From: Escherichia coli
GTDB lineage: Bacteria > Pseudomonadota > Gammaproteobacteria > Enterobacterales > Enterobacteriaceae
NCBI RefSeq assembly: GCF_046105845.1
Contig: NZ_CP151004.1
DNA: 64,000 nucleotides
Strand: one strand, 5' to 3'
Shown: positions 11,378 through 17,838 of the stretch, one piece after another
Position numbering within the stretch: position 1 is the stretch's first letter
Layout: the number at the start of each line of letters is the position of its first letter
The notes under the pieces: generated by a model
Database searches by the model: none
Told to the model about the DNA's origin: nothing
The model's input: the letters and a program-made list of their open reading frames with translations, nothing else
Translations under genes and position numbers: made by a program

Positions 11378-13069
11378 ATGAGATACATCAAATCGATTAC
11401 ACAGCAGAAGCTGAGCTTTTTGCTTGCAATCTATATTGGCCTTTTTATGAATGGCGCGGTTTTTTACCGCCGCTTCGGCAGCTATGCGCACGATTTTACC
11501 GTCTGGAAAGGCATTTCTGCTGTTGTTGAACTGGCCGCCACCGTACTGGTGACCTTCTTTTTACTACGTCTTCTTTCGCTGTTTGGCCGCCGTAGCTGGC
11601 GTATTCTGGCGTCGCTGGTGGTGCTCTTTTCCGCAGGTGCCAGCTATTACATGACCTTCCTTAATGTGGTCATTGGTTATGGCATCATCGCTTCCGTCAT
11701 GACCACCGATATCGACCTGTCAAAAGAAGTTGTTGGTCTGAACTTTATTCTCTGGTTAATCGCCGTTAGCGCATTGCCTCTTATCCTTATCTGGAATAAC
11801 CGCTGTCGCTACACCTTGCTCCGACAACTGCGAACCCCAGGGCAGCGTATTCGCAGCCTGGCGGTCGTCGTACTGGCGGGTATTATGGTTTGGGCACCGA
11901 TTCGTTTGCTGGATATCCAGCAGAAGAAAGTGGAGAGGGCGACCGGTGTTGATTTGCCCAGCTATGGCGGTGTCGTAGCGAACTCTTATCTGCCATCAAA
12001 CTGGCTTTCTGCGTTGGGGCTGTATGCCTGGGCGCGGGTCGATGAATCTTCCGATAACAATTCATTGCTTAACCCGGCGAAGAAATTCACTTACCAGGCA
12101 CCGCAAAATGTTGATGACACTTATGTCGTGTTTATCATTGGTGAAACCACGCGTTGGGATCATATGGGCATTTTCGGCTATGAACGTAACACCACACCGA
12201 AGCTGGCCCAGGAGAAAAATCTGGCAGCGTTCCGTGGTTACTCCTGTGATACCGCAACCAAACTCTCACTGCGTTGCATGTTTGTACGACAGGGTGGGGC
12301 GGAAGATAATCCGCAGCGCACATTAAAAGAACAGAACATTTTCGCGGTATTGAAGCAGTTAGGATTCAGTTCTGATCTCTACGCTATGCAAAGCGAAATG
12401 TGGTTCTACAGCAACACGATGGCAGACAACATTGCTTATCGTGAGCAGATTGGTGCGGAGCCACGTAACCGTGGCAAGCCGGTAGATGATATGTTGCTGG
12501 TAGACGAAATGCAGCAATCGCTGGGGCGCAACCCGGATGGCAAGCATCTGATCATTTTGCATACCAAAGGTTCGCACTTTAACTACACCCAGCGTTACCC
12601 GCGCAGCTTTGCGCAGTGGAAGCCGGAATGTATTGGTGTTGATAGCGGCTGTACCAAAGCGCAGATGATCAACTCCTATGACAACTCGGTGACCTATGTG
12701 GATCACTTTATCTCCAGCGTGATTGATCAGGTTCGCGATAAGAAAGCGATTGTGTTCTACGCAGCTGACCACGGTGAGTCAATTAATGAACGCGAGCACC
12801 TGCACGGCACGCCGCGTGAACTGGCACCGCCGGAGCAGTTCCGCGTGCCGATGATGGTCTGGATGTCAGATAAATATCTGGAAAATCCGGTCAATGCGCA
12901 GGCATTTGCGCAGCTGAAAAAAGAAGCCGACATGAAAGTGCCACGCCGTCATGTAGAGCTGTACGACACCATCATGGGTTGTCTTGGCTATACTTCACCG
13001 GATGGTGGAATTAACGAAAACAACAACTGGTGCCACATCCCGCAGGCAAGAGAGGCGGCGGCTAACTAA
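11378..13069 (+). CDS. eptB: Kdo2-lipid A phosphoethanolamine transferase, 563 aa
   Basis: ORF-track frame 11345..13069 trimmed to ATG at 11378 ([14 protein letters not shown]…); N-terminal TM helices plus sulfatase-like domain recognised as EptB (YhjW). Confidence 0.92.
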
Positions 13070-13160
13070 GAGGCCTGCTGACTTTCTCGCCGATCAAAAG
13101 GCATTTTGCTATTAAGGGATTGACGAGGGCGTATCTGCGCAGTAAGATGCGCCCCGCATT

Positions 13161-13494
<334 letters not shown>

Positions 13495-13495
13495 C

Positions 13496-13584
13496 GTAGG
13501 CCTGATAAGACGCGCCAGCGTCGCTTCAGGCAACGGCACCGCACTTATTGTCGGATGCGGCGCGACCGCCTTATTCGACCTATA
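13496..13584. repeat. BIME: two REP (palindromic unit) elements in inverted orientation
   Basis: GTAGGCCTGATAAGACGCGCCAGCGTCGCTTCAGGC and GTCGGATGCGGCGCGACCGCCTTATTCGACCTAT resemble the E. coli REP consensus. Confidence 0.75.
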
Positions 13585-14148
13585 CACCATACATTTCCCT
13601 GCCAAATTTGCGCCCCATATCTCACTATCCATTAACGGATTTGTGACAGAAACCATTGCCTTTTTTTATATTTGCTTAAATCTTTTTTTGCGTTACTTAT
13701 GGCTGGCGCTGGCATTTTCCGCTGTGCGTTTTAGCGTTCATGGTATTAATCGCTCAGATATCCACCTTTTCCTCAGATTTTTTTCACTAAATGCATAAAA
13801 CTTAATCACCAATTGTTGCTAAATATTAAGCTGATTGTTCTGGTCATGTTGGAGTAGCACAAATTTCTCTGCTGCAAATAGCTGTTTGAAGTTTTTTTAA
13901 TCTTTGTTTGTGGATTCTCACCGTTGGTGTAAATCCCGGTTGGCTGTATTGACGTTTTCACATTCTGTTGACAGATTGTAGGTCACGAGGGGCATTTTAT
14001 GGAGGATCCGCACTGTTACACTGATGTTAATTAGTACGGCATCCCCACCTCATACGTTGACCCGACCGGGCAAAAAACAAAAAAGGTCAGGCAGCGACAA
14101 CCCACTGCAAAGGGTTAAAACAACAAACATCACAATTGGAGCAGAATA

Positions 14149-15756
14149 ATGCGTATTTCCTTGAAAAAGTCAGGGATGCTGAAGCTTGGTCTCAGCCTGG
14201 TGGCTATGACCGTCGCAGCAAGTGTTCAGGCTAAAACTCTGGTTTATTGCTCAGAAGGATCTCCGGAAGGGTTTAACCCGCAGTTGTTTACCTCCGGTAC
14301 TACCTATGACGCCTCTTCCGTGCCGCTTTATAACCGCCTGGTTGAATTTAAAATCGGCACCACCGAAGTAATCCCGGGCCTCGCTGAAAAGTGGGAAGTC
14401 AGCGAAGACGGTAAAACCTATACCTTCCATCTGCGTAAAGGTGTGAAGTGGCACGACAACAAAGAATTCAAACCGACGCGCGAACTGAACGCCGACGACG
14501 TGGTGTTCTCGTTCGATCGTCAGAAAAACGCGCAAAACCCGTACCATAAAGTTTCTGGCGGCAGCTACGAATACTTTGAAGGCATGGGCTTGCCGGAGCT
14601 GATCAGCGAAGTGAAAAAGGTGGACGACAACACTGTTCAGTTTGTGCTGACTCGACCGGAAGCGCCGTTCCTCGCTGACCTGGCAATGGACTTCGCCTCT
14701 ATTCTGTCAAAAGAATATGCTGACGCGATGATGAAAGCCGGTACACCGGAAAAACTGGACCTCAACCCAATCGGCACCGGTCCGTTCCAGTTACAGCAGT
14801 ACCAAAAAGATTCCCGTATCCGCTACAAAGCGTTTGATGGCTACTGGGGCACCAAACCGCAGATCGATACGCTGGTTTTCTCTATTACCCCTGATGCTTC
14901 CGTGCGTTACGCGAAATTGCAGAAGAATGAATGCCAGGTGATGCCGTACCCGAACCCGGCAGATATCGCTCGCATGAAGCAGGATAAATCCATCAATCTG
15001 ATGGAAATGCCGGGGCTTAACGTCGGCTATCTTTCATATAACGTGCAGAAAAAACCACTTGATGACGTGAAAGTTCGCCAGGCTCTGACCTACGCGGTGA
15101 ACAAAGACGCTATCATCAAAGCGGTTTATCAGGGCGCGGGCGTGGCAGCGAAAAACCTGATCCCGCCAACCATGTGGGGCTATAACGACGACGTTCAGGA
15201 CTACACCTACGATCCCGAAAAAGCGAAAGCCTTGCTGAAAGAAGCGGGCCTGGAAAAAGGCTTCTCCATCGACCTGTGGGCAATGCCGGTACAACGTCCG
15301 TATAACCCGAATGCTCGCCGCATGGCAGAGATGATTCAGGCAGACTGGGCGAAAGTGGGCGTGCAGGCCAAAATTGTCACTTACGAATGGGGTGAGTATC
15401 TCAAGCGTGCGAAAGATGGCGAGCATCAGACGGTAATGATGGGCTGGACTGGCGACAACGGGGATCCGGATAACTTCTTCGCCACCCTGTTCAGCTGCGC
15501 CGCCTCTGAACAAGGCTCCAACTACTCAAAATGGTGCTACAAACCGTTTGAAGATCTGATTCAACCGGCGCGTGCTACCGACGACCATAACAAACGCGTT
15601 GAACTGTACAAGCAAGCGCAGGTGGTGATGCACGATCAGGCTCCGGCACTGATCATCGCTCACTCCACCGTGTTTGAACCGGTACGCAAAGAAGTTAAAG
15701 GCTATGTGGTTGATCCATTAGGCAAACATCACTTCGAAAACGTCTCTATCGAATAA
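14149..15756 (+). CDS. dppA: Periplasmic dipeptide-binding protein, 535 aa
   Basis: Signal peptide plus family-5 solute-binding protein sequence recognised as DppA; long upstream leader. Confidence 0.96.
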   Translation: MRISLKKSGMLKLGLSLVAMTVAASVQAKTLVYCSEGSPEGFNPQLFTSGTTYDASSVPLYNRLVEFKIGTTEVIPGLAEKWEVSEDGKTYTFHLRKGVKWHDNKEFKPTRELNADDVVFSFDRQKNAQNPYHKVSGGSYEYFEGMGLPELISEVKKVDDNTVQFVLTRPEAPFLADLAMDFASILSKEYADAMMKAGTPEKLDLNPIGTGPFQLQQYQKDSRIRYKAFDGYWGTKPQIDTLVFSITPDASVRYAKLQKNECQVMPYPNPADIARMKQDKSINLMEMPGLNVGYLSYNVQKKPLDDVKVRQALTYAVNKDAIIKAVYQGAGVAAKNLIPPTMWGYNDDVQDYTYDPEKAKALLKEAGLEKGFSIDLWAMPVQRPYNPNARRMAEMIQADWAKVGVQAKIVTYEWGEYLKRAKDGEHQTVMMGWTGDNGDPDNFFATLFSCAASEQGSNYSKWCYKPFEDLIQPARATDDHNKRVELYKQAQVVMHDQAPALIIAHSTVFEPVRKEVKGYVVDPLGKHHFENVSIE

Positions 15757-15768
15757 TTAAAAGCCATA

Positions 15769-15805
15769 CCCGGTGGCGCTGTGCCTCTGCGTGCAGCGCC
15801 ATCCG
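15769..15805 (+). other. GC-rich stem-loop in the dppA-dppB intergenic region (no T-run)
   Basis: CCCGGTGGCGCTG…CAGCGCCATCCGG inverted repeat, 12-bp stem with one bulge. Confidence 0.5.
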
Positions 15806-15906
15806 GCAGCAATACTTCATTCCCTGCCCGACCTGGGCGGGAATTGATTTGTGAGCAATACAGACACGCAGTTCCAGGCTGCGGGTCACTACAGAGAATC
15901 CGGGTT

Positions 15907-16926
15907 ATGTTGCAGTTTATTCTCCGACGTTTGGGACTCGTCATCCCCACGTTTATCGGTATTACCCTTCTCACATTTGCCTTTGTCCACATGATCCCGG
16001 GCGATCCGGTGATGATCATGGCGGGCGAACGTGGGATCTCCCCAGAGCGTCACGCGCAGCTGCTGGCTGAACTCGGCTTAGATAAACCGATGTGGCAGCA
16101 GTATCTCCATTACATTTGGGGCGTAATGCACGGCGATTTAGGCATTTCAATGAAAAGCCGCATCCCGGTTTGGGAAGAGTTCGTGCCGCGCTTTCAGGCC
16201 ACGCTGGAGCTTGGTGTCTGCGCGATGATTTTTGCGACTGCGGTCGGTATTCCGGTTGGTGTGCTGGCTGCGGTTAAACGCGGTTCTATTTTTGATCACA
16301 CAGCGGTTGGCCTGGCGCTGACAGGTTATTCAATGCCTATCTTCTGGTGGGGCATGATGCTGATCATGCTGGTTTCGGTGCACTGGAACCTGACGCCCGT
16401 CTCCGGTCGCGTGAGCGACATGGTGTTCCTCGATGATTCCAATCCGTTAACCGGTTTTATGCTAATCGACACCGCCATCTGGGGTGAAGACGGTAACTTT
16501 ATCGATGCCGTCGCCCATATGATCCTGCCCGCTATTGTGCTGGGTACGATACCGCTGGCGGTCATTGTGCGTATGACACGCTCCTCGATGCTGGAAGTGC
16601 TGGGTGAAGATTACATCCGCACCGCGCGCGCCAAAGGGTTGACCCGCCTTAGGGTGATTATCGTCCACGCGCTGCGTAACGCGATGCTGCCGGTGGTGAC
16701 CGTTATCGGCCTGCAGGTGGGAACATTGCTGGCGGGGGCGATTCTGACCGAAACCATCTTCTCGTGGCCCGGTCTGGGGCGCTGGTTGATTGACGCACTG
16801 CAACGCCGCGACTATCCGGTAGTGCAGGGCGGCGTATTGCTGGTGGCGACGATGATTATCCTCGTCAACCTGCTGGTCGATCTGCTGTACGGCGTGGTGA
16901 ACCCGCGTATTCGTCATAAGAAGTAA
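15907..16926 (+). CDS. dppB: Dipeptide ABC transporter permease, 339 aa
   Basis: ORF-track frame 15781..16926 trimmed to ATG at 15907 (MLQFILRRLGLVIPTFIG…), the recognised DppB start. Confidence 0.95.
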   Translation: MLQFILRRLGLVIPTFIGITLLTFAFVHMIPGDPVMIMAGERGISPERHAQLLAELGLDKPMWQQYLHYIWGVMHGDLGISMKSRIPVWEEFVPRFQATLELGVCAMIFATAVGIPVGVLAAVKRGSIFDHTAVGLALTGYSMPIFWWGMMLIMLVSVHWNLTPVSGRVSDMVFLDDSNPLTGFMLIDTAIWGEDGNFIDAVAHMILPAIVLGTIPLAVIVRMTRSSMLEVLGEDYIRTARAKGLTRLRVIIVHALRNAMLPVVTVIGLQVGTLLAGAILTETIFSWPGLGRWLIDALQRRDYPVVQGGVLLVATMIILVNLLVDLLYGVVNPRIRHKK

Positions 16927-16935
16927 GGGGACATC

Positions 16936-17838
16936 ATGTCACAGGTTACTGAAAATAAAGTGATTAGCGCACCGGTGCCGATGACCCCGTTACAGGAGTT
17001 CTGGCACTATTTTAAACGCAACAAAGGCGCGGTCGTCGGGCTGGTTTACGTCGTCATCGTGCTGTTTATCGCGATCTTTGCCAACTGGATTGCACCCTAT
17101 AACCCGGCGGAACAGTTCCGCGATGCACTGCTCGCCCCGCCAGCCTGGCAGGAAGGCGGCAGCATGGCGCACTTGCTGGGCACCGATGACGTAGGCCGTG
17201 ATGTGCTGTCGCGTCTGATGTACGGTGCGCGATTGTCACTGCTGGTTGGCTGTCTGGTAGTGGTGTTATCGCTGATTATGGGCGTTATTCTCGGCCTGAT
17301 CGCCGGTTACTTCGGCGGCCTGGTCGATAACATCATCATGCGCGTGGTCGATATCATGCTGGCGCTGCCAAGTCTGCTGTTGGCACTGGTGCTGGTGGCG
17401 ATTTTCGGCCCGTCGATTGGTAACGCCGCGCTGGCACTGACCTTCGTTGCCTTGCCGCACTATGTGCGCTTAACACGCGCCGCCGTGCTGGTGGAGGTGA
17501 ATCGCGATTACGTTACCGCGTCTCGCGTGGCGGGTGCCGGGGCGATGCGCCAGATGTTTATAAACATCTTCCCGAACTGCCTTGCGCCTCTGATTGTTCA
17601 GGCGTCGCTCGGTTTCTCTAACGCCATTCTCGATATGGCTGCTCTTGGTTTCCTCGGCATGGGGGCGCAGCCGCCAACGCCGGAGTGGGGCACCATGCTC
17701 TCCGACGTGTTGCAGTTCGCGCAAAGCGCCTGGTGGGTCGTGACCTTCCCGGGTCTGGCGATCCTGCTGACGGTGCTGGCATTTAACCTGATGGGTGACG
17801 GTCTGCGTGACGCGCTCGATCCCAAACTGAAGCAGTAA
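16936..17838 (+). CDS. dppC: Dipeptide ABC transporter permease, 300 aa
   Basis: ORF recognised as DppC; ABC permease hydrophobic profile. Confidence 0.95.

Follow-up and report, generated by a model that had tools for sequence, protein, structure and literature searches.

The window analyzed here is a 64,000-nucleotide stretch of the Escherichia coli chromosome that includes the dpp operon in the order dppA, dppB, dppC, dppD and dppF (open reading frame list), with reading frames matching RefSeq-annotated E. coli records at up to 100% identity. Given the dppB start codon at 15907, the spacer between dppA and dppB extends from 15757 to 15906 and comprises 150 nt. The features of this spacer and of the two flanking genes are listed below.

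14149-15756, + strand: dppA coding sequence (periplasmic dipeptide-binding protein), stop codon TAA at 15754-15756; from the open reading frame list and RefSeq records that are 100% identical.
15765-15769, + strand: CATAC, the insertion site of a BIME, empty in the window (short allele); from alignment and a junction query.
15770-15806, + strand: hairpin 1, apparent relic of a REP pair and proposed 3'-exonuclease barrier; from folding, REP-pair alignment and genome search.
15808, + strand: base equivalent to the dominant K-12 RNA 3' end (MG1655 3705889, minus strand); from Supplementary file 1 of Adams et al. 2021, mapped via NC_000913.3.
15809-15818, + strand: A/U-rich linker GCAAUACUUC between hairpin 1 and hairpin 2, unpaired in the predicted folds and a candidate endonuclease entry site.
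15819-15854, + strand: hairpin 2 (15819-15845) followed by a U-rich tail, UUGAUUUGUG, terminator-like; from terminator scan and folding.
15847-15906, + strand: conserved dppB leader with the UGAGCAAU box, hairpin 3 (15863-15887) and the dppB ribosome-binding region; from an alignment of 69 sequences.
15907-16926, + strand: dppB coding sequence (permease), ATG at 15907; RefSeq coding sequence start, translation beginning MLQFILRRLGL.

An Rfam search of positions 13000-17000 (E up to 10) identified no family in the dppA-dppB spacer; the only matches were tRNA-Pro, RtT and a BIME of the naRNA4 type, all located upstream of dppA. Specifically, tRNA-Pro (proK), RtT and the naRNA4-like BIME, which scores on both strands, are found at 13161-13583 between eptB and the dppA promoter region. 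A promoter scan did not call any internal dppB promoter in the spacer. It should be noted that the dppA 5' UTR contains a very abundant 3' end of the class "orphan" at MG1655 position 3707800, with scores of 804,330 and 3,491,085 and no significant Rho score (Adams et al., PMC7815308). This position corresponds to approximately 14054 in the window, about 95 nt before the dppA ATG at 14149, in a region where the window carries a 1-nt deletion compared with MG1655 (CCTCATACG vs CCTCATAACG). The 3707800 end could represent a 5' UTR-derived fragment tied to GcvB control.

The preliminary description of this DNA had proposed a 12-bp GC-rich inverted repeat just after the dppA stop codon that is not followed by a U-tract, and both features are borne out. 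Inverted arms of 13 nt each were located at 15769-15781 and 15794-15806 (85% complementary without gaps), and folding yields a 12-bp core with a single bulge (U15802) in which 10 of the 12 pairs are G-C. Two segments make up this core, one of 4 bp (C15770-G15773 with C15803-G15806) and one of 8 bp (U15774-G15781 with C15794-A15801). Three additional apical pairs, U15782.G15793, G15783.U15792 and C15784-G15791, extend it to a 15-bp stem, formed by a 5' arm at 15770-15784 and a 3' arm at 15791-15806 and closed by the 6-nt loop CUCUGC (15785-15790). The folding energy is -27.3 kcal/mol (z = -3.54), none of 200 dinucleotide shuffles was as stable, and no other 40-nt stretch on the + strand of the 64-kb window, sampled in 3-nt steps, reaches -27.3 kcal/mol or below. 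The stability of hairpin 1 is thus not a product of chance. In the short allele represented by the window, the dppA stop codon and the stem are separated by 13 nt. On its 3' side the next bases are CAGCAAUACUUC, containing no U-tract, and the terminator scan made no call at this position.

Of 5426 complete E. coli genomes, 5421 contain hairpin 1, and in 4783 the identity is at least 99%. A blastn search with the 50-nt region around it (word size 11, E up to 10) gave a median of one matching location in each E. coli genome. Within Escherichia the stem hardly varies, and the variants that do occur are mostly compatible with the structure, for example C15777U, which results in a G.U pair, and one strain with three changed apical pairs that are still able to pair; E. 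albertii carries one stem-disrupting A.C mismatch. A multi-copy E. coli repeat was considered and ruled out based on the single copy per genome and on the REP-tail 14-mer, which is not enriched in the window.

The origin of hairpin 1 can be traced by comparison with the dppA loci of 80 further species representatives, nearly all of them Enterobacteriaceae, whose spacers were extracted and aligned. At the corresponding site, an inverted pair of canonical REPs occurs in, among others, Trabulsiella, Leclercia, Pseudenterobacter, Pluralibacter, Lelliottia and Superficieibacter, as exemplified by GCCGGGTGGCGCTACGCTTGCACTGGCCTAC-AAATC-GTAGGCCGGGTAAGCGTAGCGCCACCCGGCAGCAGTGCTTTAT with its center GGCCTAC...GTAGGCC. 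In E. coli, the sequence CATACCCGGTGGCGCTGTGCCTCTGC/GTGCAGCGCCATCCGGCAGCAATACTTCAT corresponds to the outer ends of this arrangement, left for the first REP and right for the second, and to both flanks, while approximately 27 nt of the center are absent, including both GTAG heads. Salmonella and Citrobacter carry forms intermediate between the REP pair and the E. coli hairpin. Fourteen loci have the REP head motif directly downstream of dppA; in two loci a second copy is located elsewhere. Judged by these alignments, hairpin 1 is what remains of a REP pair that has lost its center and whose outer halves are now paired with one another. Like a REP, it is an extragenic imperfect palindrome of ~35-40 nt located 3' of a gene (a 37-nt stem-loop at 15770-15806), and its descent from REPs is supported by its alignment, in both location and sequence, with genuine REPs. 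No GTAG(G)/CTAC head is present in or beside hairpin 1, the REP tail AGCGCCATCCGGCA being the only REP part kept, and instead of many dispersed copies per genome there is one. Because it fails on head motif and copy number, hairpin 1 is referred to as REP-derived rather than as a REP. Within the window, the REP-head pattern is confined to the BIME at 13496-13583, and the K-12 RefSeq record has no annotated REP features.

Among 79 distinct enterobacterial dppA-dppB spacers, all contain a hairpin of -20.7 kcal/mol or lower between the dppA stop codon and the conserved box preceding dppB, with a median of -36.6 kcal/mol. A crude motif count divides the palindromes in these spacers into roughly 32 that are REP-like and 45 of the CCCTCTCC/GGGAGAGG type. 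Since these palindromes belong to different families, it appears that structure rather than sequence was kept after dppA. A constant hairpin of varying sequence family fits selection for structure as well as a hot spot for palindrome insertion. One member of the comparison set (L063), on a contig titled Chryseobacterium sp. 18061, has a dppA of enterobacterial type (91% identity) as well as enterobacterial REPs, and this contig is probably a contamination or mislabelled assembly.

Many E. coli genomes match the hairpin 1 region in two pieces. Alignment revealed that a 157-bp BIME is located immediately 5' of hairpin 1 in these genomes, consisting of two inverted REPs around an IHF-type spacer and flanked by CATAC direct repeats (positions 470-626 of locus L001; also L084). 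Based on a 49-nt junction query, the short, empty allele is carried by 2167 of 5426 complete E. coli genomes (about 40%), the window included. O157:H7 is an example of a short-allele strain, aligning with the window at 99.8% as one uninterrupted match. The long allele is found in about 60% of E. coli genomes, among them K-12, and also in E. albertii. The short form looks ancestral, given that outgroup genera do not contain the BIME. However, a 5-bp direct repeat is unusual for REP or BIME insertion and the two alleles could alternatively be related by precise deletion. In the long allele, hairpin 1 is moved from 13 nt to about 170 nt past the dppA stop codon and lies behind two REPs.

RNA 3' ends of MG1655 have been mapped by Term-seq in LB at OD 0.4, LB at OD 2.0 and M63 (Adams et al. 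2021, PMC7815308), and Supplementary file 1 of that study, which spans the three growth conditions, lists a dominant 3' end of the class "orphan" at 3705889 on the minus strand. It has three entries, two of which have read scores of 46,345 and 209,104, and no other 3' end at 37058xx or 37059xx is listed in the file. In NC_000913.3, position 3705889 is the A in ...CAGCGCCAUCCGGC-A|GCAAUAC, which is equivalent to window position 15808, two bases beyond the final pair of the hairpin 1 stem. The Term-seq check suggested in the preliminary description therefore speaks for its reading and returns an in vivo 3' end of the upstream message at the base of this stable stem-loop, as recorded in K-12, a strain with the long spacer allele and its 157-bp BIME 5' of hairpin 1, whereas the window carries the short allele. 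The published end lies at ...CCGGCA, in non-U sequence, and not within a U-rich tract adjoining a stem as at an intrinsic terminator. The table retains only the strongest peak per 100 bp, and an additional end at hairpin 2 may exist unlisted. Supplementary file 2 of the same study reports a bicyclomycin-sensitive (Rho) region at 3705667 with a Rho score of 2.06 and a significance of 3.6e-5 (PMC7815308). This region is located about 123 nt inside dppB and about 220 nt downstream of hairpin 1, and no Rho score is listed for 3705889 itself. RNAs terminated by Rho are as a rule trimmed back by 3'-5' exonucleases (PMC7815308). With regard to other datasets, a Salmonella RNase E map lists only the 5' UTR for dppA and no site in the spacer, and the TERMITe dataset contains no dpp entry.

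We propose that hairpin 1 acts as a barrier to 3' exonucleases that defines a stable, monocistronic dppA mRNA, a reading to which we assign a probability of roughly 0.7. Transcripts initiated at the dppA promoter would run into the spacer or into dppB and would then be broken or ended downstream. Candidate events that could feed this process are Rho action in early dppB, an endonucleolytic cut, for example by RNase E, in the A/U-rich linker, and weak termination at hairpin 2. The resulting RNAs would be trimmed by 3'-to-5' exonucleases until these are stopped by the -27 kcal/mol stem, yielding a stable dppA-only mRNA that ends 2 nt past the stem. As an outcome, dppA message would exceed dppBCDF message to an extent that may depend on hairpin 1, which fits the need for a binding protein in excess over its membrane transporter. 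The preliminary description had left open whether the hairpin is a stabilizer or a partial terminator; the position of the 3' end at the stem base and the missing U-tract both favor the former over the latter. For the same two reasons we favor trimming over termination as the probable origin of the end. Exonucleases arriving from dppB would meet hairpins 3 and 2 first, so that a dominant end at hairpin 1 presupposes a cut between hairpins 1 and 2, which is the simplest route, or else only weak blocking by hairpins 2 and 3. Counting against a stabilizer is the recent report that REPs do not uniformly lengthen mRNA half-lives (bioRxiv 10.64898/2026.03.23.713779). An Hfq-bound or 3' UTR-derived small RNA was also considered but received no support: Salmonella Hfq co-immunoprecipitation reads cluster at the dppA 5' end, and a search of RIL-seq data and literature text turned up no dppA 3' UTR or dppA-dppB RNA.

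The remainder of the spacer contains the dppB leader and two further hairpins, neither of which appears in the preliminary description. Hairpin 2, located 13 nt downstream of hairpin 1, has a folding energy of about -15 to -16 kcal/mol (z = -2.81) and ranks first among the terminator-like sites of the 7 kb scanned, although its U-tract is poor and interrupted; it is possibly a weak intrinsic attenuator. Its base, TTCCC/GGGAA, is kept across E. coli strains with base pairs preserved. The apical half is highly polymorphic among E. coli, with variants such as CCCGACCUGGG, UCCGAUAAGGG, UCCCACAAGGG and ACCGGCACGGG, and has suffered a 9-nt deletion in Escherichia sp. E1V33. Nearly all genera have a hairpin whose end lies 1-12 nt upstream of the conserved AUUUGUGAGCAAUAC box, and in Klebsiella and Raoultella this is the only hairpin. 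Pseudescherichia and related genera (L065, L076, L079, L063, L080) do not have hairpin 2. In these loci the REP pair directly adjoins the conserved box at its U-rich start (GUUAGAUUUGUG or CAGUUGUG) and itself fills the terminator-like position.

The 60-nt dppB leader shows 83% mean column identity across the 69 aligned sequences and its box is invariant in the Enterobacteriaceae sampled. Its hairpin (hairpin 3, -12.7 kcal/mol) has a CCAGGC-type loop, and three of five consensus pairs show changes on both sides, as in Atlantibacter, where GACG/CGUC is replaced by AUCC/GGGA. Possible roles of the leader include a signal for translation or processing and a target for a small RNA. For most of the species examined, folding predicts that the dppB start region (UCCGGGUUAUG, window 15897-15936) base-pairs with dppB codons ~6-10 (CGACGUUUGGGA). 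Such pairing would weaken translation initiation of dppB and could expose the RNA to Rho, which fits the published Rho region in early dppB. A long-range pairing of CAUACCCGG (15765-15773) with the dppB start CCGGGUUAUG (15900-15909) appears in the minimum free energy fold of the spacer and was rejected, being of only partial probability and not conserved; in most species the dppB start forms local pairs with early dppB codons.

Hairpin 2 could alternatively be the real attenuator between dppA and dppB, in which case hairpin 1 would be an incidental relic, the K-12 end a decay intermediate, and the ratio of dppA to dppBCDF message would not be affected by hairpin 1. Its rank in the terminator scan and the near-universal presence of a hairpin before the box are both in keeping with this idea, and the Term-seq table, by dropping peaks less than 100 bp from a stronger one, would leave an end at hairpin 2 unlisted. 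However, its U-tract is of low quality, all three entries of the three-condition file place the strongest 3' end of this 100-bp neighborhood at hairpin 1, and an RNA ending at hairpin 2 would be self-protected and should escape trimming back to hairpin 1. Among E. coli strains, hairpin 1 also varies less than does the apical part of hairpin 2. Overall, we consider this explanation unlikely.

A second explanation would have hairpin 1 itself stop transcription by pausing RNA polymerase, with termination there assisted by factors (Rho, NusG or NusA), so that the mapped end is a primary product. A 3' end only 2 nt from the stem is what such a stop might produce, a Rho-sensitive region is reported nearby, and some REPs act as partial Rho-dependent terminators without poly-U (bioRxiv 10.64898/2026.03.23.713779). 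Yet hairpin 1 is not followed by a U-tract, and the peak of the Rho region is not at the hairpin but inside dppB, about 220 nt away in the downstream direction. Further, Rho would find little free RNA for loading upstream of the hairpin, namely 13 nt in the short allele or ~170 nt, most of it structured, in the long allele, and REP fragments of 2-4 hairpins showed no Rho dependence in the study of REP325 (bioRxiv 10.64898/2026.03.23.713779). Taken together, these points make a transcription stop at hairpin 1 distinctly improbable.

The position of the stem relative to the dppA stop codon differs between the two alleles and may itself be of consequence. REPs near a stop codon reportedly stall ribosomes and reduce protein output, and by analogy the stem of the short allele, at less than 15 nt past the stop and shifted out of this range by the BIME in the long allele, might stall the terminating ribosome and lead to mRNA cleavage, trans-translation and lower DppA levels, an effect that would be compatible with an exonuclease barrier but is very unlikely, as DppA is abundant and a built-in brake unexpected, and as strains with the long allele, 60% of the total, would not experience the effect although the hairpin is equally conserved in them. 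Because the short-allele stem falls within the 15-nt range reported to stall terminating ribosomes, the BIME polymorphism might be imagined to serve as a natural expression switch between E. coli strains, an idea that we regard as doubtful. If true, the amount of DppA, or its ratio to DppBCDF, would vary from strain to strain with promoter and coding sequence unchanged.

The proposed exonuclease barrier has counterparts in other operons. The REPs between malE and malF are said to stabilize the upstream message. Like malE-malF, hisJ-hisQ is a classical case of a REP/BIME stabilizer between binding-protein and permease genes. Hairpin 1 shares with both systems a GC-rich palindrome without a U-tract that follows the gene for a periplasmic binding protein in an ABC importer operon. 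In each, the upstream message ends at the stem and the proposed role is the same, namely protection against 3' exonucleases resulting in more binding-protein message. Unlike the malE-malF and hisJ-hisQ REPs, hairpin 1 is non-canonical in that it contains no GTAG/CTAC head, is found in single copy and consists of two outer half-REPs.

REP325, located between yjdM and yjdN, is reported to stabilize yjdM and also to limit read-through into yjdN, partly via Rho, and tandem gene pairs containing REPs show higher upstream/downstream expression ratios with variable effects on half-life (bioRxiv 10.64898/2026.03.23.713779). Both REP325 and hairpin 1 are 3' UTR-associated elements between tandem genes, and the pairing of stabilization with limited read-through matches the combination of a 3' end at hairpin 1 and a nearby bicyclomycin-sensitive region. 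REP325, however, comprises 12 canonical hairpins and has been characterized by deletion, while dppA-dppB carries a single relic hairpin, joined by a two-REP BIME in the long allele, and is known from sequence and Term-seq. Processed 3' ends of Rho-dependent transcripts have been described in which a stem-loop without a U-tract marks the mature end, termination taking place downstream and being followed by trimming (Dar & Sorek 2018, PMC6061677). Hairpin 1 resembles these ends in being a stable stem-loop without a U-tract at a mature 3' end, and downstream termination with trimming is proposed here as well; it differs in that two other hairpins are situated between it and the Rho region and in that the role of Rho is putative. 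With intrinsic terminators, hairpin 1 has in common a GC-rich stem-loop at an RNA 3' end but not the U-tract, whereas hairpin 2 resembles this class, if weakly.

Hairpin 1 is an uncatalogued element of a long-known kind, representing an ordinary way to favor a binding protein over its transporter. It accounts for an unannotated "orphan" 3' end in the published E. coli Term-seq table. The 40/60 polymorphism of the adjacent BIME constitutes a natural experiment on REP effects. More broadly, the dppA-dppB spacer may be an example of an ABC importer operon that makes more binding-protein than transporter message by means of a single-copy relic of mobile palindromes kept as an RNA end-point.
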